DNA from: Balanoglossus misakiensis
Lineage: Eukaryota > Animalia > Hemichordata
DNA length: 64,000 bases
Assembly: GCA_040954595.2 (NCBI GenBank)
Contig: CM082581.2
Coordinates: 8,781,778-8,845,777 of the forward strand
Direction of reading: 5' to 3'
Shown here: positions 10,856 to 64,000 of the stretch, in pieces
Layout of the letters: every line of letters starts with the position of its first letter
Position numbering within the stretch: the first letter of the stretch is position 1
The notes under the pieces: model-generated
Databases searched by the model: none
Told to the model about the DNA's origin: nothing
The model's input: the letters and a program-made list of their open reading frames with translations, nothing else
Program-made: the position numbers and the translations under genes

Positions 10856-11400
10856 CAATTATGACCCTCAATATCATCATTCCATGCATAACGACCACCA
10901 ACCCCACCACCAGCCACGCCCTTCTTGCGGAAATAAAAATAGTAAAATAATACTATTTTTCCGGCCTTAGTACTCACTGACTTATTTATTTTACTTTTTT
11001 TATCAGGTAGCAAAATAAGACAATTACATGTAGTCACATGGAATCCCTTCATTTTATATCGATTTCCTACAATGGCGTTACTATAATCAACCAAAGTCAG
11101 TGTCAATTTTCCTGGAATAACCCAAAGTGAACAGGCAAAAATGTAAAGGCGAAGACTTTCTTTCTAAGTATTGTGACATGCACGGCCCCAGGTGTTGCCA
11201 CTAACTGTTTGCCAGGATGTTTGACGAAAGAGAATTTAATATAACTTTAATTGTACGCATATCGATTTCCCATGCCCCATTTTATTCCCGCCAAGTTATT
11301 ACGATGTATTTTTCCCTAGAGTATTCGTTTAGCCGGGGCGCGGGCATATATCCATAACGGGTCAGGCAAACTAACCATATCATTTTATGGTTAGGTCATA

Positions 11401-11653
<253 letters not shown>

Positions 11654-12470: not shown

Positions 12471-12740
12471 ATCTGTTACGGTTGGTGCGAAGTCAAAGGT
12501 CGACCCAGATTTGTAATTAAAAGTGTTAAATGTGTCGATAATCTCGCCCAATCGTGAAAGTGGTAAATGGCAACTTGGAAAGTTGCATAACCAAAATGTT
12601 CATTTATCTGTTACGGTTGGTGCAAAGTCAAAGGTCGACCCAGATTTGTAATTAAAAGTGTTAAATGTGTCGATAATCTCGCCCAATCGTGAAAGTGGCA
12701 AATGGCATCTTGGAAAGTTGCATAACCAAAACGTTCATTT
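12471..12740. repeat. 135-bp tandem direct duplication (2 copies, 4 mismatches)
   Basis: atctgttacggttggtgc...gttcattt at 12471-12605 and 12606-12740. Confidence 0.95.
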
Positions 12741-22519: not shown

Positions 22520-25157
22520 CTCAAACCTCCCTTGTAATTGTTTAGCGAAAGCATCAGCTGATGAATTGCTTCAATCTAATGTCGCACTGTAGAAAAAAAA
22601 ACAATTGTATCCCTTTCGAGTGAACAAATCTTGATGTGCGTTGTGTGAAAACTTATTGTCATGCAAAGATTAGAAGCCTTTTTATTCCGATTATTATCAG
22701 ATGGTTTTCCTGCTGCGAGTGCGTGCCCTTAACAACCTCCATACATTTTGGTTTCCGCCAGAAAAGTTATTAATAAAAGGAAAAATTCTGAATATATTTA
22801 TATTCTTATTAATAGTTATTAATCAATACCATGTATGTGATAGTATAGATCGTGTTATGCCCCGTTGCAAATTCTGTGGATACAAAACCCCGGCGTTGTT
22901 TCAAAGATATAAAAGACACGTTATCCATCACTTTGGCTTCATTAGATAAAAATCGTAATTAATGGCCCCGAGAGAGGTGATTCCATTAATCACACCTGGG
23001 ATGTAGATGCATGTCACACATCACGCTTAGAGAATGTTGAATAGAAATGATACGATCAACGTTTAGCGGTAAAACGCCACACGTTTGTGCGCGGCTAAAA
23101 GGAATGGTAAGTGTTTTTGAGAGTCAATTGCGTACTTGGTGAGTCGTCAGGGGTTTATTGATTATTTGGCTTTAATATGCGATAGATGCTAGGTATAGGT
23201 GCGTGTGGGAAGTTAGTTAGTGATTTTGTTTCTTCTTTAAGATAAAAAATGGACAACAGGTGCGCTCGGCAGAAATGAAAACCACTGCAAGCAAAATGAA
23301 TATGTGATTACAGAATTGGACACTGAACCGCGTCACGAAATGCTCGTGGTCGGTAGAATGAAATATAGATGTGAGCCTGTTTTGCAACCCACGGAGGTTA
23401 TTTTCTTTCATTAAACGGAGAGCAACCGACGGATATTGCAGTTGTTGTACCAGGCCTGCTTGTAACTATCTTCGCAGGCAAGTTAAGTACATTTTGATTC
23501 AGAAGTGACTGACACATGTGTTGGCAGACACTGTACTGAGACGCACAGTATTGGCGGTTTGGATTCTTCAGGAGTGCAAATTGAGTACTAAATTGATTTC
23601 ATAATGAGGAAACGATTTAATCACTGTATTCCCTTGCCGTTGAGGCGATTGAGAAACACACCGTTTTCAGTGTCGGTCGCCGCTTGTGTCTGTGATGTGA
23701 AGAGATTTGCAGAACGGGAACACAGCAAACCAGCGTTCAATCAATTTCATTGATGCCGTAGTCCGTGCGGGATACGCAGTTGCTTTTATGTTGAAAGGAA
23801 CTATTTGAAACCTAAATGAATTATATTTCGAGTGGATTAATTTAACGCTGCACGCAGAGCGTCACTGTCGTGATATATTCTTTCGAGGTTGTTGTGAACA
23901 GTGCCTGTAAAAATCGCGTTAAACACCAGTAGATGTCAGCGTAACCTACATCAAACAATTTCCATCTAACCCTCGCTCATAGTGAGTGAGACTAAGACGT
24001 CTTTTGGAACTCTATAGACAGGGAAACCAACTCACCCATGACCACCGCTGTTTACTAATTTAAAGTATCGAAGTGTGATTATCAACATGGCTCAGTCAGG
24101 TATTTGTGTTTAAAAAATGCTTGATCCAATATCACATCCACATGACGTGGTGACAATATAACATCTCTCTAGATTTAGAGGATGGACGCCGACCAGTAAC
24201 GATTATTCGGCAGAATTTAATATCTGGTGTCTTCCTTTGCGCAATCGCAAATGCCGTTTCAAAGCAAACCGCGGCCGTGTGAGTCGTGCATGTGTAATCA
24301 GGACATTACTGGTTACAATGGATGACTCAAAACCGGGTCACAATCCTATTTTGTGATGATGTTTTCATCTAGCCGACACGTGGTGTCGCTTGATTGATGA
24401 CAAAATTACTGATACTGCGTACATGCATGAATGATCAAAGCAACCCATGTGTTTGATTTTTGTGGTAGCGTTCTTTATCTCGCCGACGTGTGCTCTCGCG
24501 GGATCAATGACGTAATTGACATTGTTTCGTTCATATGTAATCAAAGTAATGTATGTATGTGCATGGATATATGAAATTGTATGTTGTAGCCAGATCTTTT
24601 GTATAATAGAAGTAAAATTGAGAAGGTGAAAAGACGTACGCGAAAAGTTATACTGTAAATGTTGCTATGGATGACAGAGCTTTATGGCTCACTGAGACCT
24701 AAATTTGTTGCCTTGGATACTTAAAGTGGTTTCTTCCGCTAAGAGGGCCCATTATTGAACGCGGCTAGGTAAGAAATGGCTCCATACATGTATCGCAGGG
24801 CAGTCGATACTTTAAGCCTTCGAGAGACAAATCAGTTGGCACCACACAGACGCCTGGCATTTATTTTTCCACAATCATTTTCTGTCAACATCCGTGTGTC
24901 AGAAATAAGCCGACTTGCGGTTTCTCTGGAAAAACTGCTGGATAGCTGTTCCACAAACGTCTTGATTAGAGTACCGATTTTGACCCGCCGACATCTCTTT
25001 TTCTGCTGTTTAATCTGCCGCTTCCAGTTGTGTTTTTTTCTGTTGTAGATCAGACACACTGAGACTCGACTTAGCGATGGCTGCTTTAATCAGAGGGACA
25101 CGCAGCGTAAAAGTTCTCACTCACACGTAGCGTTTATGCAATGGCACTCCAATGATA

Positions 25158-25181
25158 ACCACCACCACCACCACAACCACC

Positions 25182-25256
<75 letters not shown>
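25158..25256. repeat. Compound microsatellite (ACC)n + (ATC)24
   Basis: Directly visible; the ATC run spans 25185-25256. Confidence 0.98.
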
Positions 25257-28200
25257 GGACACACACACTCTCCCCCCCCCCCCACACACCCACACACTGC
25301 GAACAATCAAGATATGCATATTTGCAGCACACGTACGGTATCTAAAATGGCAATGTTCCTCGGGATTTGGAGACATCTGGGCGCCAATCGAAACGGTGGA
25401 CGGGCGTCATCAGTATCCTTCAAGCATTCGGGGATGTCTGAGATGCGGTACCCATCCGGAATTATAGTCGGATTCAAACCAAAATAACGACCCCGGGATA
25501 TGCATTCTGTCGCCAAGTGCAGCGTTTAAAGTTTGAACAATCAAAATTGCATGAGAATGAGTTCGGTAAACCTCAGTGATTAGTGAGTGGCACCGGATGG
25601 GTCCAATCCGGTGGAGATTGCAACAATCGCCTCCAGCAACCCTATGATGTGTGCATTTATTTCCCCAGCTGATTCGTTTAATGCAAGCGCACGCACTGCC
25701 GGCATGTGCTGAATCTTTGAAGAGACATACTTCTGTATAAACCGCTGTAGATCAATGGCACCTCAGGAGTCGGCTCGTGTGCATTCAAGCGTTTCTATAA
25801 TAGATATCATGGGCTGCTGAATAAATACGGCGTCTCTATTAGACAAATAATCCCTCCCAGATGATATCACTGAAACAATTTAGGATTTCAATTGTGTGTC
25901 TTGCCTATAGTGTATACGTATACCTGTGCTTTGATTCTTTGTTTAAAGCCTATTCTCGTTCGTGCTATCATAAACATTGTATTTGGGCATGACAATTCCT
26001 GATGGACATATTTACATGTGGGTTTTATGTTGCTCGGCTTAGGATAGGTAATCACTTTGCCTTTGAACGAATTCGGATGACTTCGGTTTTTAAATCGTCG
26101 TTGAGCTTAGGTTTATTAATGCGTCACCGAATCCCCGATACCATGAACGGCGGTCTTAAATTCTACTCATACAAATCAGTTCGGCTCTTGGCAGGTTCTT
26201 GTACATACGTTCCGGCTATCGCCTTTCACCACAGCAACAGGCAATGATTAAACTTTCCAGTCTCTTAAAAGGGGATTTATCTCTTTGCTTGTATTGATTT
26301 TTGATTACCGTGTCTGATTGTCTCTTAGCTGTTAATGTTGACGATGTCTGCTTGTATTGAGAATGCCGTCACGTATGCTACAGGTGTTGAGAACGTTCTA
26401 TACGTGGTGCAATTCATAGGTCTGTGCAGGAAGCACGTTCCCGCAGATACTGTTGTTTCTTCTCGTTTTGATTTTGTTCCTTGTTTTTTTCTCGTGATAA
26501 AATACGTTTGAACACTATACATGTACTATAACAGTGGAGTGTACGGAATATTATTGAGATCAACAACGACACATATCCCCGTATTCCCACTTTCGTCCCT
26601 TTATTTGATAGTCAAGTGTAACAGAATATTTGTATCGTTAGAAATATCTAAACCCTTAACAGCTTTGGCCTCGACTCGATTAATATCCATCAGTCTGTCA
26701 TACAATGTCGAAAACATAAACAATAGATGTTTGATATGTAGCCAACTTACCCATCAAGGTTAACATATTACGGAACGGATGGTGTCCACATTGGACGTTT
26801 CGGGAGATAGTATTGGATTGTAACTGAATATTCTGATGTTAGCTCATAGACAATCCGACCTTATTAAATGGTCTCATTTGCCACATTCGTCTTTTGAACG
26901 TGACCACTTCCAAGAATTTCCAGCAAAATGGGGTGATAGTAAAGATAGGGGTCATGCAGCGCTCTCTTCTCTCCTACAGGTTTCTGAAAATCACATATTT
27001 CCTTCGGCTCTGAAGATCTGTGTGATTCTCCGCCAAGAATGACTTTGTCTTTTTGATTTCGTGTGTCTGTAGCGTATCCTGCTCAGTTTGACAGATGAAA
27101 GACTCGCGGCAGCAGCCACATACTGAGGGACCGTGAATGTGACACGCACAGTCCCGAGGATAGACAGGCGCCGTGCTGTTATACCCGAATGAGGCCGGTT
27201 AATGTATTATGGTTGTTTTGTAGCACATGTCAAATGATTTTGCCGTCATGCGTGGCTTTGGCTGCAACACAGACGGACATTGTCATTCGTGCGTTTCCTC
27301 GGGTGCTTCGTCATCTTGAAGCTGTCCTGTTACCTGGTCAGGTACAATGTAAGCGTATGCAAACTGCTGGCCAATAACCGAGCTCGTTGTTTTGTATCAG
27401 CGCAAAGAGAAATCGGTAAAACCTTTGCCGTCGGCAACAACAATTTAAAGTCATAGTTTCCAGCGCGAAACCGAGCAACACGTACTGAGTTTCCCAATGG
27501 TGAGTGATGATGTCACGGGGAATCTGTCAGGAAGACATAAATCTCGCTGCCGTCTGCTTATAACTCAATATCTCTAACTTAACAGAACAATTCACTTGTG
27601 CGTACGTTCAGATCAATCTCGAATTCCTGGCTGGTGACATAATAAACGGTGTCGAATTGTTCTTCACGTCTGTTCAAATATGTCTTTATTCAGGCCCATA
27701 TCGTGCGTGTTTCATTCCCCATTATTCCACATTACCAGAAGTATGTATGATTAACAGTCCCATATGGTACGGAGCAGACACAAAGGGTCGCGTGATCTGG
27801 ATATATTTAACCAGTATACGTATATATGTTTGGTAATGTATTGATTAAATACAGATACGTGACGCTCCATGGGACGTACGTGTCATAACACTTTGACATT
27901 AGTACTCCTGTCGAGAATGACAAATACGCGTCTCTGTATCCCTTTTCAATAAAAGAACAATATATAACCTATATGTACTAAATGTAGGGTCTCGTGGCTG
28001 TAATTTCCTCTTCTGGGACATTTTTAAAAACAAATCTGTATCAATTCCACGAATGCATCGAAAAGACCCACTGCGTGGAACATGAGACGACCGAAGAAAC
28101 GCGATCTGGTTCATCATCGATTCCACGGATGCAACATTTATGGATACAGTATCTTTTGAACTGAATAAATAATAGTCTGGTCAAGGAAACGATCTTCGGG

Positions 28201-50272: not shown

Positions 50273-53200
50273 TCACACAACCGTGACAAATTGAAATACG
50301 GTTGGCAGGTCATCCGATGCCGGTGGGTCTTTGGTCTCGCCGGCTGTTCGAGTGGTTTGCCGTCGTCGTTGGCACTTCGTTATCAGCGGAGGCGTGACCA
50401 TCAGCATGACAGCCGACAGACAGAGTAGACTGCCGGTGAAGAAGTAGCAATAGTTGTAGCTACCAGTCAGGTCCAGAATCCGACCTGAACAGAGAAACAT
50501 ATACTTGTAAACATATATGTCTTGTGTGTCCAGTGTTGTTTTTGTGTGGTGGTTAAAGGTTAGTTAGGAATTGCTGCACGTCTACTTGTCTGAGGTGGTT
50601 AGACAGTCAGTTACACATCTTAGCATCTGACGGCTTTGACAAAATGAACTCTGCTATTTATGACACACAACCAGTGGGAGTAACTGCGCATGGACAATTC
50701 ACCAGCCCTGGATTACATAATCTCTGCACTGACTTGGTCTTCATGAATAATTCGGAGGTGATAATTCGGGGAGAAACTAAAACAATAGACAGTGGAGAAC
50801 AGTGGACAATCATTCTGAATAAATTATTGTAGAAAATATGTACAGCAATGCACCTGGAAGGTGGTATAAAAGGCTGCGTGCCCATTATTGAGGGGAGAGA
50901 CTGACATGACAGCCAGCGGTAGCACTGAGGCACTGTGTGTGTAATCCTACTAGTACCAGAATCTGACTGCCAGGCCTGTTTGGCGAAACTACAACGGTGA
51001 CGGAGTTTTCCACCAAGTGTGATACGAGACATCCTGTGCGGCCACGGATCGACCATCATCTCGATGAAACTGGAAAGACTGATCTATTCTGCGACCCATT
51101 TCCCGGAACATTGTCACTACTGAACTCACGGGTAGGGCAAACGTTCGATAACCACCTGTTAATGTCGTTTGTCATGTTTGTACCGTTTCATGTCTTTGTG
51201 TTTGTGTTTTGTGTAATATTTCTTTACTGTGCATACAGTCCACTTGTATTTTGTCTATAGTAGCTGTCCCTGTACAATTTATTGGATCCATCGATACAAT
51301 TCTGCAAGTTGAATAAATAGTCTATGCATAAACGTAATAAAGTATCTGAGTTTTACGATTCCCGGAGTAAGGGGTCCCCAGCACAAAAGAACCCAATCAC
51401 ATGGTCTGAAGGAAAAGCTACAAGGTACTGCCTCAGTATCATCCCTTGTATCATACCTTGTGACACAGACCTTTCTCTGGTCGCGGACAATTTAATAACT
51501 GTGACACCTCTTTAATCTTTTTCTTTTCGTTTTTAAATTTTGATCATTACCTGATATAATTACCTGTTATCGGTGGCCCTATAAGAGCGCCCAGTCCGTG
51601 GCAGAGGTTGCAGAAACCCAGCGCCCCCGTCAGTCTTCTGGTACCCACAAAATCCTTCAGAGTGACGGCCAACATCGGGTGGTAGACGCCGTTAGCGAGT
51701 CCGAAAATCGCGTAGAGCACGGCGAGACCGACGTACTTCTGCACCATGGCGCTCGCCAGGTTGACAGCGCCACAGATGAAGACACTGCCGGCGAGGGCGC
51801 GAATCGGCGTCACCAGTCCGATATCGACCAAGTGTCCGTGTCCCGCGCGGCCGAACAAACTCACAGCCCCGGTGATCGTCATGAGTGTGGTCGGCAGCGG
51901 GTAAGGGATGCCGAACGACTCTGCCCGGGCGACTAGGAATAATATAGTGGGGTAGAATCCCACGGCTATGATGAAATAGGCAACCGCCATGAGAACAAAA
52001 AGAGGGTGACAAAACAATGAAACGTCGATGAATTTTGAAATTGCTTGAAGGCATTTCACATCTGTGGCGCGTTTGTTGCTATGTGTCTTGTTGATACTAA
52101 AGGTACTCATAGTTGTTTTGCGAGGCTTAGCTTCTTGCCATTTTGTAATGTCCAGTTTCCGATTGCGTTGACCTATATCGTGCATTCTAGAGTTCAGGGA
52201 GATATCGCTCGTTAGCTCACAGTAAGGTGCCAAATCTATATTTGCCGCGTCCTTGTTTTTATCCGATCGTGCCCTCAAGGTGACGACGCGATTTGTGAGT
52301 CGAGGAGGTCTAAACAAAGCACCGCACACGCAGATATGAAGGTCCATTGCCGCCAGGCACACCATGGAATTGCGCCAACCGAAGCGGTTTATTAAAACTT
52401 GATAAAGTTGCGGCAGGGCGATCCAGCCGATGGCAAAGCCGGCAAACACCAGACCGTTGGCCAGGGCATAGCGTTTCTTGAAGTATCTGGCGATGAAGGC
52501 TATACTCGGTGTGGCCACAAGTCCAAAGCCAATGCCTAAAGTGAGCAAAGAAAATGAAATATAAACATACACAGTCTTTTGAATCAAAATGTGTTGTGAC
52601 ACTTATACCTATGAAAAAAAATCGGTCATTGCAAGTAATCGAACTAACATCTTCAATGTGTATATCAATAATTTGTTTTTAAAAGTTGACGCTGAATACG
52701 TAGTTTTTATATTGCAACGTGCAGACTGAAGTTAAAAAATAATTTATTGGTTATAATGGTCCCATATTCATCTCCCGTGGCCTTGCAGAGCAGGAGTAGG
52801 CGTCTGATAAAACAAGTGCTCCGAAATCTGAAACCGTGTCTTACTGACCCACAATGACTCCGCACGTGATGTAGAGGTGGGACAATTGGTTTGCCATGGA
52901 ACTTGTGAAGTGACCCACGGTCGACACTACCCCGCCGATGACAACTACAGCACGACATCCAAGCCAGGAATTCAGTGCGCTGGCAATGGGGCCTGCAAAG
53001 TAAAGAAAGGGGGACACGGGATGTGAATGACCTCTGATTAAGACCAAGACAATGAGTATACTGAGGAGTCCCAGACGTGACCAATCGCAGACAAGTCTAC
53101 TATAAGGCTGTCTACTCTCCGTCATTGGGTTAATTCAACGAAACAGACGCATGTTTTTTGTGACCATCCAAATGAAAGTCCGTGATTGGCTAGATCTCCC

Positions 53201-54127
53201 CTTCCCATTTGGTAGCTATGGTAACATTTTCATAAGTGACCACCCCTTTCATACCTGTAGCAAGAGTCACGAAGAGGGCGGTACCGCTGATGCCAGCCAC
53301 TTCTCCGGCGCCGCTTTCAAAGTACTGCTGCAGGCGAATGATGAACGGACCAAAACCGGTGAGACTTCCCTGGGAGAGCAGCAGTGACAGGTGCACCGCC
53401 ATGACAACCACCCACCCCCAGCCGCCATCCGGAGGATCGTCATCTTCGTAGTCGTTTTCCGGATCTTCGCTGTCCTTCGTTTTTGTTGGCAGTCCTTGCA
53501 AATCGACAACTGCATCTGTTACGCAGGAACAGTTACAGAAGTATTGACAAGCGTAATGTTATTCCAAGTAAAACACTCATTAAATTCATTTGTCATGAAA
53601 ACAGTTTTAACTTTTATCAATAAAATCCTTGGTCTTCTGTCAAATGGGACGGTAGTAAGCACAGAGTAACCCAGCGAGTCAGAAATAGTAAAGCGCGCCT
53701 CTCTCTCTGTAGTGAAATTAGTACTGACGACAAGAAAAGTCATAGTTGCCATTTTACGGAATGCGAATGACTTTCGACTAAATCTTAACAACATTGCCAG
53801 ACGTGGCAATTCGTTCAATCTGTATGACTTCGCCTTGATATAAAACGTGAATGTCAAACATCAAAGCTCAATTGGAAAACTTGGTGATAAAATTATAAAC
53901 AAATAAGGAGTGTTCTAGTTATGGATTGTCGTTGCCGACAACTTGAAAAGTAAGTGACGCTCAAAAGTGCAATGGAAATGGTTCTTTTTTGGCTTACCTG
54001 TGGTTCTGGTGTCGTCAGGAGAGTCAGAAGTGATTAAGGAAATCCTGACGCCATTGGCTGCCTTCACTCTCGCTTCGTGCACATCGCCATCGGCGGCGTT
54101 GGTTTTACACATGGCGATGGAAATCAT
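50273..54127 (-). CDS. SLC16/monocarboxylate transporter (MCT) family MFS transporter, 5 coding exons, ~572 aa
   Basis: Exons (minus strand): 54127-53998, 53515-53255, 52992-52849, 52535-51564, 50484-50273. All introns are GT-AG and phase 1; total 1719 nt, open frame. SLC16 signatures: PPDGGWGWVVV before TM1, YFKKRYALANG after TM4, long hydrophilic central loop, GRAGHG in TM8, GPPITG|RILDLTGSY near TM11-12. The start could instead be the ATG at 54112 (better Kozak context). The orthologue cannot be assigned by eye. Confidence 0.92.
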
Positions 54128-54980
54128 TCGGCGACGGTATTAAACGCGCCGGTCTATACGGTTCAACGTTTCGCATGGAATGTCGAGTCCCGGACTCATG
54201 ATCTACATGCGTGTCACACGAGGCCGTGGACACTCGCCTCTTTTGAGATGCCGCTACGGCATACGTGCAAAATTACACGTTCTGTCTCGGCGGCCACCAT
54301 AGTACTATCAGGAGAGGGTACAACCGGACGCGATATTTGATCAAGATTTCATTCACACCTAGTGTGCGCCGATATGAATATCGTGCTGCTTTACATATAT
54401 TAAGTTTAAGCTAAATCTATTTAAACTATCTCATGTTACCTCTGACACTTTCATAAGTTAATGAGCGGGCGAGAAATCGCAAAATATCTACAGTTTTAGG
54501 ATTGGCCGTGTTCGTGGTCTTAAAGAACAAAGCCATGACGCACGTGACAAAGTTTAAAGACAGATTACACACGGGCAAGTATGGTTTGAATTGAAAACAA
54601 AACATTGAATTCTGATTTAGGCCGGATTGAACTTAGAACGCACTTAAATTCTATAGAGGAACACTATATTAATGTTGAATATTGTAGTCTGAAAGAGGCA
54701 CACGAATAATTCAAACATCACACCTAATCATGTATTGGTCACGACACTCCAAACCATTAATAGTCAATCAATCATGTTAAGTCCATTCAGGGCCTACCAT
54801 ATCATTTCAATGGCTACGGCGGACTTCCCTGTGTAACTTCGTCTATTAGGAGTCACTTGTGACCTTTTTAACTAAAGCCACCGGTAACAAGACCCGTGCA
54901 AGACTAATTTCTGCCGGCACTCAAGGCTGTATTGTACCAATATTTGCATTCCGAGGGCACTTATATTCTTGGAACGGTTA

Positions 54981-54996
54981 CAGTGCCCTCAAGTGG
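54981..54996 (-). promoter_or_regulatory. Candidate CTCF site upstream of copy 1
   Basis: Reverse complement CCACTTGAGGGCACTG, one mismatch to the CCASYAGRKGGCRS consensus. Motif match only. Confidence 0.4.
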
Positions 54997-55335
54997 TGAA
55001 GATGAAACACACCTCAGCTCATATAGCCAGGCATATAGTACTAATACTCCTTTGAGCCCGTGGTGTGCGTCCATAGAATTGGGCGTGTGCATTGTAAAGA
55101 CTTGGGAAAAGCATGGTCGACTCAATTTCCCTCCATCCAACCAACCAATCCACCCACCCAAAGACTAGTCCACCCATACACCCATCTATCTAATGAATTG
55201 CATCACGAATTTTGACCGGCTTGGAATAGTTCAAAGGGTGTGTCTCAACTCGTTTGCATACAATTGGCAGCCCTTTCAGTGACCATTTGACGAACGACAT
55301 CATTACACGCGTGTTCCCGCGAGCTCTCGTCGAAC

Positions 55336-58300
55336 ATGAATTCGTCAGGACTGTTCTGGATTTCCTTCTGTCTTCTTCTTGAAGGTATACCTTTTTGTTG
55401 CGTTTATCGTTTTGGTCATTTCGGATATGTTTCTAAGTTTTCCGCGTCGTTTCTTACATTGTGTATCTGTTAAACCCAGGTGTGCTTAAAAAGTTGGACA
55501 TTCATATTTTGAGATCAGGCAGTGATTGGCCAATATGAATGTTTTGACTGATGACGTACGTACATGTACATGTAGATGGGCTTGTTTAATTTCATAATTT
55601 GTACAGCCCACTGGCGAAGATAGACATCGACTTTATTTTAATTCTATTACGATTATGGTTTTCATAACTTAGGAAACTATGCTTCTGTACACGCACACAC
55701 ATTCATTCCAGAATATGTGTAGCTATCGTGCTCGATTTCCCCAAAGTATATTTCTTTAATCCGCAGTCGATCATGGGCGCGTTTGCACAGAATCGTTTAA
55801 ATGATTTTGGACTAGTCATGACAATATTCGCTGTGTCACAATGGATGTTTTATTTTTATCTGGAATGAAGACTGACCCCCGGGACTGACCTGACCGGGGT
55901 CACTCTTAGTATAGTTTGCAACCCTAGTTGCTGTTAGATAGCTCTCCGGAAATGTAGTCCAGCGGATAACGATGAGATACAGTAATGAGACATTGTTGCT
56001 GTGGATTTTATCAGATTACGGAACTCGTCAAGTCTTTTCACAGGATCGGCGTCTATGCCAGGTCACAACCATGGCGACAGAGGTGAACGGCTCCAATACA
56101 GAGACAACCCGTCAGATGATGACCTGTTGGAAGAAATCGCCACCGTGGTTCGGACCTCCCTTGATGAGTCAATGCCTCTTCTCCAATCTATGACGTCGGA
56201 TCGACTTCCGTTTCCAATGGCCCGTGCAATCTTAACAAATTATGGCGGCAGGGTAGGATAAAATTATAATTGTTTAAAGGGACAAAGTCCCTCTCTCGCT
56301 GTCCCTTTACCATTATGTTTGATTATACAAGATAATGTTTATGTTATTATACATGTGGACATATAGCGAATCAAATTTCGACCACACACAACTTCCATCC
56401 CACTTTTAGACACGAGAGTGAAAAACTCACCAAAATGAACAATCGTCATTTTATTTTCCATTTTTTTAAAGTTGGGATTTGGTGATGCCATGGGGCCCTT
56501 AATCAGAGGCATGGAACAACGGGAAGACTTGGATCAAGCATTGTTATTGTTCATGGAAATGGGAAACGCAATGGGAAACGCGATACTGGAAGGTCTCAAG
56601 AAGCAGAAAGAGGAGAGGACGTATACGTTTCTATTTGACGCCATTTGTAACTGTCCTCTACATTACATGTAAGTTAAATTTATATTGGCGAGATAGCTCA
56701 GTGGCAGACCAACATCCGAAATTAATAACCAGTAGATTCAAGATACATGTATACATGTATCTTGAATCCTGGTTATTAATTTCGGATGTTCTATGAACCG
56801 ATCGAAGAGGCCAATGTCATATATACTTAACAGTAATACATAATTTTATTTATTAAATTTTAGAGAAGACGGTGCCAGTGAGATGAAGGGCTTTTGCATC
56901 GATATTGTTGAAGAAGGTGAGTATTAACCACAAAGATTTGGAAGGAAAAGGGAGAGAAGAAACATTGCACTGTGATTATAAATGCGATATTAGACTGAAC
57001 GTACAGAAGGTTTTCAAGAATATATCCATGGAATGTTTGAGTCTGACTCTAATTGCACTGTCGTCAAAATGTGCATTTCTCATGAAAATACAGATTTTAC
57101 ACGGGTCCGATAGTGAATTATTGTTTCAATTTTGTCTCTCTTTTCTTCATACACAGTCTGCAGGGCAGCCGGTAAAACATGTTTTATTCAGCAAGCACCC
57201 TATGATATGTGCTTTAAAAGTGGCACTGGAGAGCGTCTAGATGGTATTGGAGACGGTAGGTGGCGTGAATGATTTGTCTGACTGAAATATTGCCTATTTT
57301 CCCAGTATATGCATGGATGATGCAAACACAATCAATGGTCTGTAGCACCATACATGTTCATGTGTAATAGCAAGGTCTCTCCAAACCCCTACACAGGTAT
57401 ATCTTCCGGTCAGTACGATGGCTGTATAGCCGCAAACAACCCCGGAGTGACCAATTCAATGGCCCTTACTGATGTGTTTGAACTTTATAGTGGACCGTCC
57501 CGATATTATGTTCCTGTCGGGAACCCGGGAAAATTCAACGCCGACGACATCAGTGGAAAGAAAATAGGTATGTCCCCTTCCACCGTTTCATTACTTGAAT
57601 TCGTAAAAATTTCCCTCCTAGGTTTAAGTCTGTGCTTTATTGAATCCCCAAACGACAACACGGCGAAGCATGTACATGTACAGAGTGACTTAGCTCTGGT
57701 ATGGGAGTCAAGTGGTGGCACTCCCGGTAAAATAAATTTATGGCTGTTGATCATGTTAAGAAATCGAGGAGAAATGTCTCATTTTCGTCACTGCAGTCTT
57801 TGTTGAACTGGTTGCTATCAATAATTTGATATTGTCCCTGTGAAAACAGCGCCGTCATCAATTATTGGGTTTATTCTATTACATACATGTACCTGTATGT
57901 ATGCATCGATTACCTTCGCATCAGCAAAGGGGTTTCATTCTCCATTCTCACACAGGATTTATCAGCGGGTGGCCGAGTAATAGAAACTGCCTGGTCGGAA
58001 ACAAGGTCAACGGGGCCGAAACGCTCGGACCGGAACAAATGCTATATTTTGACTCCACCAGAGAGTTTCTCGCCAGTATGGAGAATAAAAAGGTAAACCG
58101 TGTAGCTGAATGAAAATGCGTTGCTAATTTGTATATATTTTTTAATATTCTTCGAAGCTCAGTAAGTTCATACTAGTATATGGTTTGTGCAGAATACAGT
58201 TCAATGAGTGTAATTATTTGTCACGGCTCGTAACCACAACGACCTATAGCTTTTCACATTTATCTGCTTTTTTTGTTCATCACAAACAGATTGACGCCGC

Positions 58301-59139
58301 CTTCGTGTATCAGACATGGCCCGAGGACGGTGTTGACGACAAAGACCTTGAAATGCTTTCGGGCACACCTGACGGGCTGGAACCGGTCGGTGACGTCATG
58401 TACTGTTTTAACGGCACCCACATTGGTACGCGTAAAGACAGCCCCGTGATCGAATGGTTTAACGCCGGTTTGAAGACGATCATGGAAAGTGGCAAATATG
58501 CTCAGCTGTGTAGGAAGGCACGGACCGAATACGGTAAGTCGCTAAAAGCGGGTGTCACTGTAGGCGAAAGTTCAGAAAAAAACATGTTTTTGAAACATGT
58601 TTTTTTCAAGTTTTTAAAAGCTTCAAAACTGATGCTCGTGTTATTAAAACTTGCTGAGTGTTGTGGTGATGGGAAAGAACAAAACAACGTAATTATATGC
58701 TTTCTTCGCAAGCCCACTGCCGTTCACCGTGTTCGCGGTCCCTAATCGGGTGGGTGCTTTTGGCCGCGTATCATCTTTGCCTTGACTCACATTTTCGATA
58801 TTTTATTTGCGATGGCATTGTTCTAAACACATCAGATTTCTTTTACAATTACTAATACTTCGAGCTGTGTTTAGCCAATGGATTTTTATAAGTCATTAAC
58901 AATATCAATCATACATGCCCGTGTTTTTTTAATTACAGTTATTATCTTGGCTCCGTGAACAACGTATTTTGTTCTCAGTGGTTTCAAGCGAATATGAGGG
59001 TATTGCTATGCATTTGTCCTCACCCCTAGTACTTTTACTTTCTCACTCTGTTAAATGCGCCTCAACGAAAACTAATTGAAACAATTCAATGTATTTTTCC
59101 TTTGTAGGTTCCAAAGGACGAATTGATTGTGTATTTTAA
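55336..59139 (+). CDS. Secreted type-2 periplasmic/solute-binding-protein-like protein (SBP_bac_3 / iGluR-LBD-like fold), copy 1, 9 exons, 396 aa
   Basis: Exons 55336-55384, 56044-56252, 56472-56668, 56864-56916, 57157-57255, 57397-57567, 57956-58092, 58290-58533, 59108-59139. All GT-AG, phases 1,0,2,1,1,1,0,1 are consistent, total 1191 nt. Signal-peptide-like N-terminus MNSSGLFWISFCLLLEGSAS. SBP-like blocks: PLHYIEDGASEMKGFCIDIVEEVC, ISSGQYDG, DDISGKKIGFISG, MENKKIDAAF, RKDSPVIEWFNAGLKTIMESGKYAQL. The exon structure is conserved in copy 2. Confidence 0.85.
56711..56790. repeat. 80-bp near-perfect loopless palindrome in intron 3 of copy 1
   Basis: aacatccgaaattaataaccag(ta)gattcaagatacatgta|tacatgtatcttgaatcctggttattaatttcggatgtt. 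The arms are exact reverse complements except for a 2-nt bulge. Confidence 0.95.
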
Positions 59140-59237
59140 AAAGCGGTCGACATACAGGACAAAGATGATGGATTACTACCCTTTTCATTTCAATGTTCAT
59201 GTAATTAATAGGATTGACACTTTGATACTCTGCTTAG

Positions 59238-59259
59238 AATAAAAATGTGGTTTAATAAA
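59238..59259 (+). terminator. Polyadenylation signals (AATAAA x2) for copy 1
   Basis: AATAAA at 59238-59243 and 59254-59259, about 100 nt after the stop codon; conserved in copy 2. Confidence 0.6.
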
Positions 59260-59318
59260 ACGCATCCCATAGTCTGAATGTTGGGCAGCAGGTAATATCC
59301 AGGGAAGGCGAACGGTGG

Positions 59319-59334
59319 CAGCGCCCCCAAGTGG
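59319..59334 (-). promoter_or_regulatory. Candidate CTCF site upstream of copy 2
   Basis: Reverse complement CCACTTGGGGGCGCTG, one mismatch to the consensus; paralogous to 54981-54996. Confidence 0.4.
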
Positions 59335-59511
59335 TGAAGATGACACACGCCTCAGCATCCGTCTATCTAATGAATTACATTTCGAATTTTGACCGGCTTG
59401 AAATAGTTCAAAGTTTGTGTCTCAACTCGTTTGCATACAATTGGCAGACCTTTCAGTGACCATTTGACGAACGACTCCGTTACACGCGTGTTCCCCGGAC
59501 TCTCGTCGAAC

Positions 59512-62500
59512 ATGAATTCATCAGGACTGTTCTGGATTTCCTTTTGTCTTCTACTTGAAGGTACTTTTGTTGTTTGTGTCGTTTTGGTCATTTTGGATAT
59601 GTTCCGAAGTTGTCAGCGTCGTTAGTAACATCGTTTATCTGTTAAACCTGGGTGTGCTCAAAAAGTCAGACAGTCATATTTTGAGATCAGACGTTCATTG
59701 GCCAATATGAATGTTTTGACTGATAACGTGCGTACATGTACATGTAGATGGACTTGTTTAATTTCATGGCAATATTCGTTATATCACAATGGTCTTTATT
59801 TTTTTTATCTGGAACGAAGACTGACCTGACCGGGGTCACTCTTAGTATAGTTTGCAACCGTAGTTGCTATTAGATAGCTCTCCGGAAATATAGTTCAGCT
59901 GATAACGATGAGATACAGTAATGAGACATTGTTGCTGTGGATTTTATCAGATTACGGAACTCGTCAAGTCTTTTCACAGGATCGGCGTCTATGCAGGGTC
60001 ACAACCATGGCGACATAGGTGAACGGCTCCAATACAGAGACTACCCGTCAGATGATGACCTGTTGGAAGAAATCGCCACCGTGGTTCGGACCTCCCTTGA
60101 TGAGTCAATGCCTCTTCTCCAATCTATGACGTCGGATCGACTTCCGTTTCCAATGGCCCGTGCAATCTTAACAAATTATGGCGGCAGGGTAGGATAAAAT
60201 TATAATTGTTTAAAGGGACAAAGTCTCTCTCTCGCCGTTCTTTTTTCCATTATGTTTGAGACAAGATACTGTTTATGTCATTATACATGTGGATATATAG
60301 CAAATCAAATTTCGACCACACACAACTTCCATCCCACTTTTAGACACGAGAGTGAAAAACTCACCAAAATGAACAATCGACATTTTATTTTCCATTGTTT
60401 AAAAGTTGGGATTTGGTGATGCCATGGGGCCCTTAATCAGAGGCATGGAACAACGGGAAGACTTGGATCAAGCATTGTTGCTGTTCATGGAAATGGGAAA
60501 CGCAATGGGAAACGCGATACTGGAAGGTCTCAAGAAGCAGAAAGAGGAGAGGACGTATACGTTTTTATTTGACGCCATTTGTGACTGTCCACTAATTTAC
60601 GTGTAAGTTAAATATATATTGGCGAGACAGCTCAGCGACCTATCTTGAATCCTGGTTAATTCATTTCGGATGTTCTATGAACCGATCGAAGTGGCCACAT
60701 ACACTTAGTAATATATAATTTTATTTATTAAAATTTAGAGAAGACGGTGCCAGTGAGATGAAGGGCTTTTGCATCGATATTGTTGAAGAAGGTGAGTATT
60801 AACCGCAAAGATTTGATGAATTGATAACATTGAACTGAAGCCAACAAGACGCATGTAATGAGAAATGAGGGAAGAAGCATTGTATTGGGATTATACATGC
60901 GATATACTGAACGCACAGAAGTCTGACTCTAAATGTGCATTTCTCATGAAAATAAAGACAATCTGATTGTACATGGGTCCAAAAGTGAATGATTGTTTCA
61001 ATTTTGTCCCGCTTTTTTCTTCACACACAGTCTGCAGGGCAGCCGGTAAAACATGTTTTATTCAGCAAGCACCCTATGACATGTGCTTTAAAAGTGGCGC
61101 TGGAGAGCGTCTAGATGGCATTGGAGACGGTAGGTGGCGTGAATTATTTGTCTGACTGAAATATTGCCTATTTTCCCAGTATATGCATGGATGATGCAAA
61201 CACAATCAATGGTCTGTAGCACCATACATGTACATCTGTACTTCTGGGGTTAACTACAGTTAAGGGGTTGTTGAGGGGAGATATTTAACCGCCAAATGAA
61301 ATGGAAGGGCTCGGAAATCGGGTTGTGACTCGTGTTTTACAAACCTGTCCCAGAGGGAAGGTCCCGTAGGATGATTTTACAAACATTTGAGTGGACCACA
61401 GCAAAGTATCATTTTGTCATCGCTTATTTCGCCTGTTGTTATAGCAGCATGAGCTTCGATCTATCAACCATGTAATTGCAAGGTCCCTCCAAACTTTTAC
61501 ACAGGTATATCTTCCGGTCAGTTCGATGGCTGTTTAGCCCCAAACAACCCCGGAGTGACCAATTCCATGGCCCTTACTGATGTGTTTGAACTTTATCGTG
61601 GTCCGTCCCGATATTTTGTTCCTGTCGGGAACCCGGGAAAATTCAACGCCGACGACATCAGTGGAAAGAAAATAGGTAAGTCCCCTTCCACCGTTTCATT
61701 ACTTGAATTCGTAAAAATTTCCCTTCCAGGTTTAAGTCTGTGCTTTATTGTATCCCCGAACGACAACACGGCGAAGCATGTACAGAGTGACTTAGCTCTG
61801 GTATGGGAGTCAAGTGGTTGCATTCTCGGTAAAATAAAGATATGGCTGTTAAAAATCGAGGAGAAATGTCTCATTTTCGTCACTGTAGTCTTTGTTCAGA
61901 ACTGGTTGCTATCAATAATTTGATTTTGTTCCCGTGAAAACAGCGCCGTCATCAATTATTGGGTTTATTCTATTACATACCTGTATGTATGCATCGATTA
62001 CCTTCGCATCAGCAAAGAGGTTTCATTCTCCATTCTCACACAGGATTTATCAGCGGGTGGCCGAGTAATAGAAACTGCCTGGTCCGAAACAAGGTCAACG
62101 GGGCCGAAACGCTCCGACCGGAACAAATGATATATTTTGACTCCACCAGAGAGTTTCTCGCCAGTATGGAGAATAAAAAGGTAAACCGTGTAGCTGAATG
62201 AAAATGCGTTGCTAATTTGTATATATTTTTTAATATTCTTCGAAGCTCAGTAAGTTCATACTAGTATATGGTTTGTGCAGAATACAGTTCAATGAGTGTA
62301 ATTGTTTGTCACGGCTCGTAACCACAACGACTTATAGCTTTTCACATTTGTCTGCTTTTTTGTTCATCACAAACAGATTGACGCCGCCTTCGTGTATCAG
62401 ACATGGCCCGAGGACGGTGTTGACGACAAAGACCTTGAGATGCTTGCGGGCACACCGGACGGGCTGGAACCGGTCGGTGACGTCATGTACTGTTTTAACG

Positions 62501-63204
62501 GCACCCACATTGGTACGCGTAAAGACAGCCCCGTAATCGAATGGTTTAACGCCGGTTTGAAGACGATCATGGAAAGTGGCAAATATGCTCAGCTGTGTAG
62601 GAAGGCACGGACCGAATACGGTAAGTCGCTAAAAGCGGGTGTCACTGTAGGCGAAAGTTCAGAAAAAAACATGTAGTCAAGTTTTTGAAAGCTTCAAAAC
62701 TGATGCTCGTGTTATTAAAACTTGCTGAGTGTTGTGGTGATGGGAAAGAACAAAACAACGTAATTATATGCTTTCTTCGCAAGCCCACTGCCGTTCACCG
62801 TGTTCGCGGTCCCTAATCGGGTGGGTGCTTTTGGCCGCGTATCATTTTTGCCTTGACTCACATTTTCGATGTTTTATTTGCGATGGCATTGTTCTAAACA
62901 CATCAGATTTCTTTTACAATTACTTCGAGCTGTGTTTAGCCAATGGATTTTTATAAGTCATTAACAATATCAATCATACATGCCCGTGTTTTTTTAATTA
63001 CAGTTAGTATCTCGGCTCCGTGAACAACGTATTTTGTTCTCAGTGGTTTCAAGCGAATATGAGGGTATTGCTATGCATTTGTCCCCACCCCTAGTACTTT
63101 TACGTTCTCACTCTGTTAAATGCGCCTCAACGAAAACTAATTGAAAGAATTCACTGTATTTTTTCTTTGTAGGTTCCAAAGGACGAATTGATTGTGTATT
63201 TTAA
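59512..63204 (+). CDS. Secreted type-2 periplasmic/solute-binding-protein-like protein, copy 2 (tandem paralog), 9 exons, 396 aa
   Basis: Exons 59512-59560, 59980-60188, 60406-60602, 60739-60791, 61031-61129, 61505-61675, 62044-62180, 62377-62620, 63173-63204. Exon lengths and phases are identical to copy 1 and the frame is intact. About 16 amino-acid differences by manual comparison. Confidence 0.85.
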
Positions 63205-63302
63205 AAAGCGGTCGACATACAGGACAAGGATGATGGATTACTTCCCATTTCAGTTCAATGTTCATGTAATTAATATGATTGACACTTTGATACTCTGCTT
63301 AG

Positions 63303-63324
63303 AATAAAAATGTGGTTTAATAAA
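63303..63324 (+). terminator. Polyadenylation signals (AATAAA x2) for copy 2
   Basis: AATAAA at 63303-63308 and 63319-63324. Confidence 0.6.
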
Positions 63325-63467
63325 ACGCATCCCATAGTCTGAATATGGTTACAGAAAAAGTGTGTGAGTTCTTTTTTACATTTATCACTATTTTTTTGAC
63401 ATGTGAAAAATGTCCAAAAATGACAAAATCACCATAGTTCGCAAAGTCCGGAAATTGTCATTTCTTG

Positions 63468-64000
63468 AAAAAAGCATGGGTTATAGCTCATGAAAATCAT
63501 CCAAAAATGACAATTTTTCGACTTTCCGAGATATCAAAATTTCTTCATTTTTTCGAAAAAAGCATGGGTTATAGCTCATGAAAATCATCCAAAAATGACA
63601 ATTTTTCGACTTTCCGAGATATCAAAATTTCTTCATTTTTTCGAAAAAAGCATGGGTTATAGCTCATGAAAATCATCCAAAAATGACAATTTTTCGACTT
63701 TCCTAGATATCAAAATTTCTTCATTTTTTCGAAAAAAGCATGGGTTATAGCTCATGAAAATCATCCAAAAATGACAATTTTTCGACTTTCCGAGATATCA
63801 AAATTTCTTCATTTTTTCGTAAAAAGCATGGGTTATAGCTCATGAAAATCATCCAAAAATGACAATTTTTCGACTTTCCGAGATATCAAAATTTCTTCAT
63901 TTTTTCGAAAAAAGCATGGGTTATAGCTCATGAAAATCATCCAAAAATGAAAATTTTTCGACTTTCCGAGATATCAAAATTTCTTCATTTTTTCGAAAAA
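63468..64000. repeat. 88-bp AT-rich tandem satellite/minisatellite, 6 full monomers, continues beyond the window
   Basis: Monomer aaaaaagcatgggttatagctcatgaaaatcatccaaaaatgacaatttttcgactttccgagatatcaaaatttcttcattttttcg. The gcatggg motif recurs at 63474, 63562, 63650, 63738, 63826 and 63914. Only about 3 substitutions across the copies. Confidence 0.97.

Follow-up and report, generated by a model that had tools for sequence, protein, structure and literature searches.

How does an animal come to make a free protein of the kind that bacteria use to catch solutes outside the inner membrane, and what might such a protein bind? The question is raised by two neighbouring genes, copy A and copy B, at positions 55336-63204 of a 64,000-nucleotide (nt) stretch of the acorn worm Balanoglossus misakiensis (assembly GCA_040954595.2, contig CM082581.2, positions 8,781,778 to 8,845,777), which is called the window here. 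In animals, the SBP_bac_3 (type-2 periplasmic binding) fold is known as part of glutamate-gated channels. An earlier note, made from the letters of the window, had left two origins open for these genes, namely a bacterial binding protein or a soluble derivative of the ionotropic glutamate receptor (iGluR). Profile, fold and tree evidence together point to ancestry in the proteobacterial HisJ/ArtI/ArgT arginine-binding proteins, not in the iGluRs. The fold and the automatic labels of the relatives were already known; what appears from sequence to be new is a free, secreted, multi-copy animal family of SBP_bac_3 proteins, with a branch that has lost the ligand-binding arginine.

Both genes are intact, with the following features.

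55336-59139, + strand: copy A, 9 coding exons, 396 amino acids (aa); exon borders from sequence, with a full-length match to P0004
55336-55384, 56044-56252, 56472-56668, 56864-56916, 57157-57255, 57397-57567, 57956-58092, 58290-58533, 59108-59139, + strand: exons of copy A
59512-63204, + strand: copy B, 9 coding exons, 396 aa; exon borders from sequence
59512-59560, 59980-60188, 60406-60602, 60739-60791, 61031-61129, 61505-61675, 62044-62180, 62377-62620, 63173-63204, + strand: exons of copy B
55336-55384 (copy A) and 59512-59560 (copy B), + strand: exon 1, signal peptide predicted from hydropathy alone
59238-59259, + strand: two AATAAA polyadenylation-type signals, 99 and 115 nt past the stop of copy A
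63303 and 63319, + strand: AATAAA signals, 99 and 115 nt past the stop of copy B

Exon lengths are identical in the two copies (49, 209, 197, 53, 99, 171, 137, 244 and 32 nt), all 16 introns are GT-AG, and each coding sequence of 1191 nt gives 396 aa with a single stop. The spliced model matched a RefSeq protein of Ptychodera flava (P0004) at 44% identity over 391 aa (E 1.5e-112), and the alignment included the short last exon and its conserved cysteine; therefore, the exon choice and the C-terminus are independently supported. Between the copies, 32 of 1191 coding nucleotides (2.7%) and 16 amino acids differ, and aligned introns mismatch at 1.5-10.6%. Constraint acts between copies A and B, and both were retained as coding genes, because the nonsynonymous rate (dN 0.018) is well below the synonymous one (dS 0.058; dN/dS ~0.3; Fisher p 0.0015).

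The predicted protein consists of a signal peptide, a helical extension and one uninterrupted domain.

56044-56609, + strand: ~110-aa helical N-terminal extension of copy A (exon 2 and the 5' part of exon 3), from alignments
56610-59136, + strand: contiguous SBP_bac_3 domain, residues 133-396 of copy A, exons 3-9 (family profile, 279 bits)
57159-57182, + strand: C171/C178 of copy A, equivalent to the HisJ C38/C45 cysteine pair in the HisJ alignment

The N-terminus is hydrophobic (best 9-residue mean 2.48), as it is in 47 of 59 family proteins examined, and a later hydrophobic stretch occurs in 4 of the 59. In the window protein, hydropathy past residue 35 peaks at 1.07 over 19 residues, and the C-terminus is common to the homologues. 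Thus the intact nine-exon structure, the lack of a hydrophobic segment past the signal peptide and the stand-alone domain, as read by the earlier note from the letters, all held up. The mature chain of ~41.5 kDa (isoelectric point 4.7) is predicted to be secreted. Eight cysteines are conserved across the family, from which up to four disulfides are predicted, and the C38/C45-type pair is found in 48 of 51 bacterial rows and in all animal rows with letters at that place. The extension is common to the Ptychodera and Saccoglossus members and absent from the gastropod members in alignments. Its P0004 equivalent was modelled as all-helical with a predicted local distance difference test score (pLDDT) of 70.6, and, folded alone, it gave no informative structural match (best Z 6.0). 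It might serve in oligomerisation, by a parallel with the tandem domains of gastropods. In a related protein from a JGI record (P0025), the extension switches to and fro between His/Asp-rich repeats and Lys/Leu-rich helices, which suggests metal binding or assembly.

For the fold, the P0004 model was used as a stand-in for the window protein, to which it is 44% identical. Its mean pLDDT was 73.6, with domain blocks mostly at 80-96 and low values across the first 59 residues. Foldseek returned bacterial glutamine-, histidine- and lysine/arginine/ornithine (LAO)-binding proteins first (best E 2.2e-14), and the first GluA2 domain came at rank 33 (E 5.6e-12). By VIA-align, the model superposed on LAO with Z 18.8 and a root-mean-square deviation (rmsd) of 5.1 over 221 aligned residues, and on one LAO lobe with Z 18.4 and rmsd 2.0 over 132, which is the two-lobed type-2 fold; GluR0 gave Z 16.9 and an animal iGluR Z 15.6. 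On this model, fold alone separates bacterial binding proteins from iGluRs weakly, and sequence does better. Among the PDB sequence matches to the family profile, the best 60 of 105 were all prokaryotic binding proteins or their reconstructions, and no iGluR was among these 60 although S1S2 constructs were present in the library. PF00497 was matched by 25 of 26 aligned members (E<=0.05), PF10613 by 1 of 26, under its cut-off, and PF00060 by none of the 26. Exon 8 of the window alone scored 15.5 bits against PF00497 (E 0.015), under the cut-off, and its closest homologues scored above it. TIGR01096 (Lys/Arg/Orn) was the best NCBIfam match in all 7 members compared, at 19-48 bits against a cut-off of 256. 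The SBP_bac_3 assignment and the impression of a more bacterial than receptor-like domain were thus supported. The iGluR-derived alternative was not: the likeness of the KGFCIDI motif to the S1 segment of N-methyl-D-aspartate (NMDA) receptors comes from C163, which aligns with HisJ Asp30 and, among 150 domains, is confined to the two window copies (0 of 13 from Ptychodera, 0 of 44 from gastropods, 0 of 51 from bacteria).

Trees were built with bacterial rows drawn from three plasmids and 401 Pseudomonadota genomes, with searches by PF00497 in three genomes and by PF00060 in 151 as further sources. The first tree, made by a quick method, covered 98 of the 150 domain rows, and 16 partial or duplicate domains were dropped before residues were counted; an LG tree used all 67 rows, and a mixture-model tree was made with 16 of the 67 rows removed after the first tree had been seen. 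In each of the three, a branch at 99 set the eukaryotic members apart from the other rows. In the free LG search they joined long divergent bacterial rows, and a tree holding them with the cysteine-pair HisJ/ArtI group was 24 log units better than that search. In the mixture-model tree they nest inside this group at 88-92, nearest to ArtI/ArtJ-like rows. The Ptychodera and window domains form one clade at 98, with the window pair inside it. Hemichordate rows cluster separately from gastropod rows, in line with the species, which would fit one old event. A bacterial protein with the full cysteine set of the family was found neither in the 401 Pseudomonadota genomes (best 77 bits, with at most three candidates scored per genome) nor among 41 plasmid records (24-26% identity).

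From these results, we consider it likely that the family was transferred from proteobacteria, and infer that this happened before, or at about the time of, the protostome-deuterostome split; alternatively, an early transfer was followed by spread from one eukaryote to another. As judged from its sequences, the family spans deuterostomes and protostomes, so that any transfer would be old and not particular to the B. misakiensis genome. The locus itself is an animal one by the standard for horizontally acquired genes in PMC4729200 (section 21), with eight introns and an adjoining SLC16 gene. Similar histories have been described: MSP130 (PMC11878542) and the microbe-like deuterostome genes of Simakov et al. 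2015 (PMC4729200) are also bacterial extracellular proteins with introns, expanded across bilaterian phyla and read as old horizontal transfers. Their folds and roles differ from those of the present family, whose terms had no match in the covered portions of the main text and supplements of Simakov et al.

Several points weigh against this origin. First, the fold scores of iGluR domains are just 2-3 Z units lower than the bacterial ones. Second, no animal iGluR is in any tree, and the bacteria were chosen by similarity, are mostly Pseudomonadota and share 16-23% identity with the family. Third, a GluR0-type grouping, with bacterial GluR0-type domains only, was 29 log units worse than the HisJ/ArtI one, yet was not rejected (approximately unbiased test, p-AU 0.106). 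Fourth, the HisJ/ArtI nesting is unstarred, emerged after 16 of 67 rows were dropped and is absent from the LG tree. Finally, a member from the green alga Prasinococcus (P0026) allows an older eukaryotic origin with losses; it is also compatible with a second transfer or with contamination of its transcriptome. This protein (Prasinococcus capsulatus, EukProt) has at least three family domains, keeps both the Arg and the Asp/Glu of the pocket, carries a low-complexity linker and a hydrophobic tail, and, of living forms, may come nearest to the donor state.

The uncharacterised homologues that had been anticipated in other invertebrates were found in acorn worms and gastropods, where they are named automatically. 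A search with exon 8 against 1.84 billion representatives gave 26 proteins, 20 of them family members by alignment with the spliced model; apart from one Prasinococcus protein, those with names are RefSeq models of Ptychodera flava, Saccoglossus kowalevskii and Glandiceps talaboti. The closest relatives show 51% identity over the domain and 44% over the full length. Six exon 8 matches (P0013-P0015, P0018, P0020 and P0022) were rejected as repeat-rich noise, as was a PPR match on exon 3 (E 0.002, under the cut-off). A profile of five distant members then gave 51 proteins, of which 47 were family members and 4 were weak bacterial-type matches; all named members among them are gastropod proteins with one to three tandem domains. 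Ptychodera alone has at least 13 paralogues with differing pocket residues. The proteins of Ptychodera flava (XP_070539770.1, XP_070539552.1), Saccoglossus, Glandiceps and gastropods (Aplysia, Biomphalaria LOC106072884, Haliotis, Patella, Elysia) share the eight cysteines, the signal peptide and the absence of a pore; these RefSeq and UniProt relatives are named by pipelines alone and are uncharacterised. In contrast to the window protein, the gastropod members lack the extension, often have two or three tandem domains and keep the arginine, and a few have a hydrophobic C-terminus. In P0077, P0079 and P0069 (Haliotis, Elysia), a hydrophobic C-terminal or second N-terminal stretch may mark membrane-anchored forms of the family. 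A Glandiceps fragment (P0010) bears an insertion typical of the Arg-less clade, and this clade may therefore reach beyond Ptychodera. Two LOC1197 genes are given as best hits in a Schizocardium table; this range may be that of the sea star Patiria miniata, in which case echinoderms would join the family.

A word-based search gave no match with exon 8 and 6 proteins with a 13-row alignment, most of whose own rows were missed; the family searches are too insensitive to infer absence from any taxon. A DNA-pattern scan, for which the alignments are too divergent, found no relatives of P0021 or P0025 in metagenome contigs or of P0063 in viral contigs, and only distant binding proteins were matched in the viral fold library. 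We found no description of a secreted animal SBP_bac_3 family in the literature searched, which lay outside subscription journals and bioRxiv supplements; the family is unmentioned in the main text of PMC11940790, the supplement of PMC10799875 and PMC6006793.

What such a protein might bind can be approached through its pocket. According to PMC4917951, LAO grips lysine via Tyr14, Phe52, Asp11, Ser72, Arg77 and Asp161. Two of these positions were placed in the window by alignment as follows.

57447-57449 (copy A) and 61555-61557 (copy B), + strand: Val220, at the HisJ/LAO Arg77 (alpha-carboxylate) position
58308-58310 (copy A), + strand: Tyr312, at the HisJ/LAO Asp161 (alpha-amino) position

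The whole pocket reads N/D146 (Tyr14), Y185 (Phe52), D142 (Asp11), A/P215 (Ser72), V220 (Arg77) and Y312 (Asp161), where the Tyr14 and Ser72 mappings adjoin alignment gaps and are less sure than those of Arg77 and Asp161; in addition, the Ser/Thr120 and Thr121 pair has given way to W265 and P266. An arginine occupies the Arg77 position in 50 of 51 domains from bacteria, 44 of 44 from gastropods, 3 of 3 from Saccoglossus/Glandiceps, 2 of 2 from algae and 32 of 35 unnamed ones, but in 0 of 13 from Ptychodera and 0 of 2 from the window. At position 161, Asp or Glu is retained by 42 of 51 bacterial domains and by 0 of the 62 named animal ones. An Arg or Lys stands at the Tyr14 position in 31 of 44 gastropod domains, which would suit anions. 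As the Arg77 and Asp161 equivalents are replaced, an amino-acid ligand is unlikely, and the ligand of the Arg-less branch is probably not a free amino acid. It is probably uncharged, and likely aromatic or aliphatic, as the pocket holds Val, Tyr, Trp, Pro and Cys. The automatic 'arginine-binding' names are probably wrong for this branch. As to the earlier idea of small-molecule scavenging, the protein is probably no scavenger of amino acids, since the backbone-binding residues are lost in the window/Ptychodera branch.

Compared with its nearest known systems, HisJ, ArgT/LAO and ArtI/ArtJ (STM4351; cluster-F; PDB 1hsl, 1lst, 2y7i), the window protein has the same contiguous two-lobed type-2 fold, motif order, C38/C45 pair and Asp11 position, and it is predicted to be exported and soluble as they are. 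In contrast to them, its gene has eight introns, its identity to them is ~20%, it carries six extra conserved cysteines and the 110-aa helical extension, and Arg77, Asp161, Tyr14, Asp30 and Thr121 are replaced. Also unlike the situation in bacteria, no permease or ATPase gene was seen beside it in the window (0 of the 60 longer open frames compared matched Pfam), and the family lies far under the TIGR01096 cut-off.

Evidence on where such proteins act comes from another acorn worm, Schizocardium (PMC13554239), whose supplementary file 5 was covered for 13 of 56 clusters; its headers are absent, and the columns were read by the usual Seurat layout. Of 11 genes annotated there as family-3 solute-binding proteins, 9 are raised in cluster 7, classed as endoderm. 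Six of them are up by 2.2-2.9 log units and positive in 67-95% of its cells, and all the other cluster rows covered show these six lowered. Cluster 7 also has lactase-like, ACE2-like, SLC3A1-like, GLUT-like and cubilin-like genes. By analogy with these same-annotated genes, the B. misakiensis locus would be expressed in the gut. The solute-binding genes are unmentioned in the covered portion of the main text of that article ('periplasmic' occurs 0 times). A Biomphalaria homologue is expressed at 977-5253 counts in 17 samples, with a two-fold difference between two diets (adjusted p 0.0036); this difference was not counted as support, because 6501 of 21,887 genes also differed.

Taken together, our tentative first choice, which we judge to be close to an even matter, is an old bacterial gene that now encodes a secreted gut-lumen carrier of an uncharged solute. 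In such a carrier, the helical extension and one bacterial-type clamp domain would be secreted into the gut lumen, where the clamp would close on an uncharged small molecule, bring it to the gut wall or absorptive surface, and hand it over to apical transporters or to endocytosis, as intrinsic factor does with cubilin. A fuller scenario is doubtful as a whole. It holds that early animals took the receptor half of a bacterial ATP-binding cassette (ABC) transporter, without the pump, as an abundant gut carrier catching dilute solutes from sediment or food for animal transporters or cubilin, and that in acorn worms the pocket was later remodelled and the family enlarged into a panel of non-amino-acid binders, possibly for their own halogenated aromatics. 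Some findings speak against a gut carrier of this kind. In two of the Schizocardium genes, the mild rise is instead in mesoderm, in a different endoderm cluster and in a neural one (PMC13554239), and clusters 13-55 (43 of 56), including four secretory and four endoderm ones, lie outside the part covered. The Schizocardium genes are known by annotation alone and may belong to the Arg-keeping branch. In addition, an LAO-based sensor with R77L lost just 3-fold in lysine binding and one with D161I 20-fold (PMC4917951); these mutants still bound lysine, and therefore single losses do not abolish binding.

A free, secreted, multi-copy family of this kind in acorn worms and snails would bring to light an unrecognised part of the digestive or defensive physiology of invertebrates, plus a further old transfer from bacterium to animal. 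The proteins are small, predicted to be soluble and present in the laboratory animals Aplysia, Lymnaea, Biomphalaria and Saccoglossus, and are thus directly testable. Moreover, their natural pocket variants on the SBP_bac_3 fold are a source of new biosensor scaffolds.

The alternative that survives best, although we regard it as unlikely, is sequestration: the clamp would mop up dietary or self-made small toxins, such as the halogenated aromatics that acorn worms accumulate, or microbial signals or nutrients in gut or mucus, in the manner of lipocalins or nutritional immunity. The many Ptychodera paralogues with differing pockets and the uncharged pocket agree with it, halogenated aromatics are reported in enteropneusts (PMC6315191), and a reeler-domain gene is raised alongside in Schizocardium cluster 7. 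It is also favoured by the recent duplication: of the 17 replacement changes between the copies, 13 lie within residues 133-295, a region that has 383 of the 930 replacement sites and boundaries picked after looking, and two of them are at the Tyr14- and Ser72-equivalent positions. However, the binding is itself predicted from sequence, cluster 7 looks absorptive, and the gastropods, with Arg kept and Arg/Lys at Tyr14, fit anionic metabolites rather than such toxins.

The duplication and the neighbouring gene that bears on it are located as follows.

55179-63344, no strand: tandem duplication, with a unit of ~55179-59279 repeated at ~59356-63344 (blastn and repeat scan)
50274-54120, - strand: multi-exon SLC16 (MCT1/MCT2-like) monocarboxylate transporter gene (PF07690 E 1e-24; MCT2 E 1e-27)

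The unit shows 86-88% identity in its 5' part and 95% in its 3' part by blastn, introns 7-8 differ by only 1.5-2.2%, and the contrast between the two parts suggests gene conversion or a mosaic duplication. No third copy was found by tblastn within the 64-kb window. The pair might instead be an assembly artefact in which two haplotypes of one gene were laid in tandem, which would touch copy number only and not the protein. Very heterozygous marine invertebrates can show haplotype differences overlapping those between copies A and B, in both coding sequence and introns, and a satellite array starts directly past copy B. On the other hand, the unit ends are sharp, 47 nt that lie upstream of copy A (54972-55018) recur at the junction (59310-59356), there is no second copy of the flanking SLC16 gene, and the family is multicopy in Ptychodera; an artefact is therefore quite improbable.

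We give a similarly low probability to a secreted enzyme on the binding-protein fold, in which the cysteines next to the pocket (Cys-x-Cys at 145-147, and C163) would be catalytic or metal-binding. The model for this is cyclohexadienyl dehydratase (PDB 5jos, 5wjp), which arose from an arginine-binding ancestor and is, like the present family, an SBP_bac_3 protein that left transport; it differs in being a bacterial periplasmic enzyme, and the comparison is by profile and fold alone. This dehydratase and its ancestors are among the profile matches (5jos E 4.8e-10), C145 and C147 each occur in 9 of 13 Ptychodera domains, adjoining the Tyr14 position, and the relative expresses its genes among digestive ones. 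Nevertheless, the dehydratase matches rank under plain binding proteins, no polar residue of the pocket is invariant across the family, and the extra cysteines may equally be structural disulfides.

Residual binding of amino acids or short peptides by a rebuilt, lower-affinity pocket, as the 'arginine-binding protein-like' names assume, is decidedly improbable. D142 and Y185 keep the Asp11 and Phe52 positions, the R77L cost in the LAO sensor was small, and Schizocardium cluster 7 expresses the SLC3A1-like amino-acid transporter chain; against this, Arg77, Asp161, Tyr14, Asp30 and Thr121 are all changed together (to V, Y, N/D, C and P).

Scarcely credible is a soluble offshoot of an animal iGluR acting as a neurotransmitter buffer like the molluscan acetylcholine-binding protein (AChBP): the shared fold, the GluR0-type grouping that the tree test did not reject and a Schizocardium gene that is slightly up in one neural cluster are outweighed by the lack of receptors among the best PDB sequence matches, a domain unsplit by any pore or pore remnant and free of membrane helices, the HisJ cysteine pair, an NMDA-like cysteine confined to the window copies, the lost carboxylate-binding Arg and the mainly endodermal expression in the relative across the 13 clusters covered. 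With the iGluR ligand-binding domains (GluA2, GluN1, GluR0, plant GLR) the family shares the fold class (Z 14-17). With AChBP it shares the concept of a secreted free ligand-binding domain in an invertebrate; the AChBP fold is unrelated, and AChBP comes from the animal's own receptor, whereas the window family points to a bacterial transporter component.

The surroundings of the pair add a few observations. The SLC16 gene lies head-to-head with copy A, ~1.2 kb upstream on the opposite strand, and a promoter shared by the two is possible but unsupported. No Pfam match was obtained for the 60 longer open frames at 1.7-53 kb of the window. Intron 3 is 195 nt long in copy A and 136 nt in copy B; an 80-nt near-perfect palindrome (95%) at 56711-56790 in copy A, mostly absent from copy B, looks like a small hairpin insertion. 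The satellite past copy B has an 88-nt unit with at least 6.2 copies at 98% match (63458-64000) and runs beyond the window edge. Elsewhere in the window, there are long ATTG and ATC microsatellites at 11400-11650 and 25150-25260, and a 135-nt tandem pair at 12471-12740.

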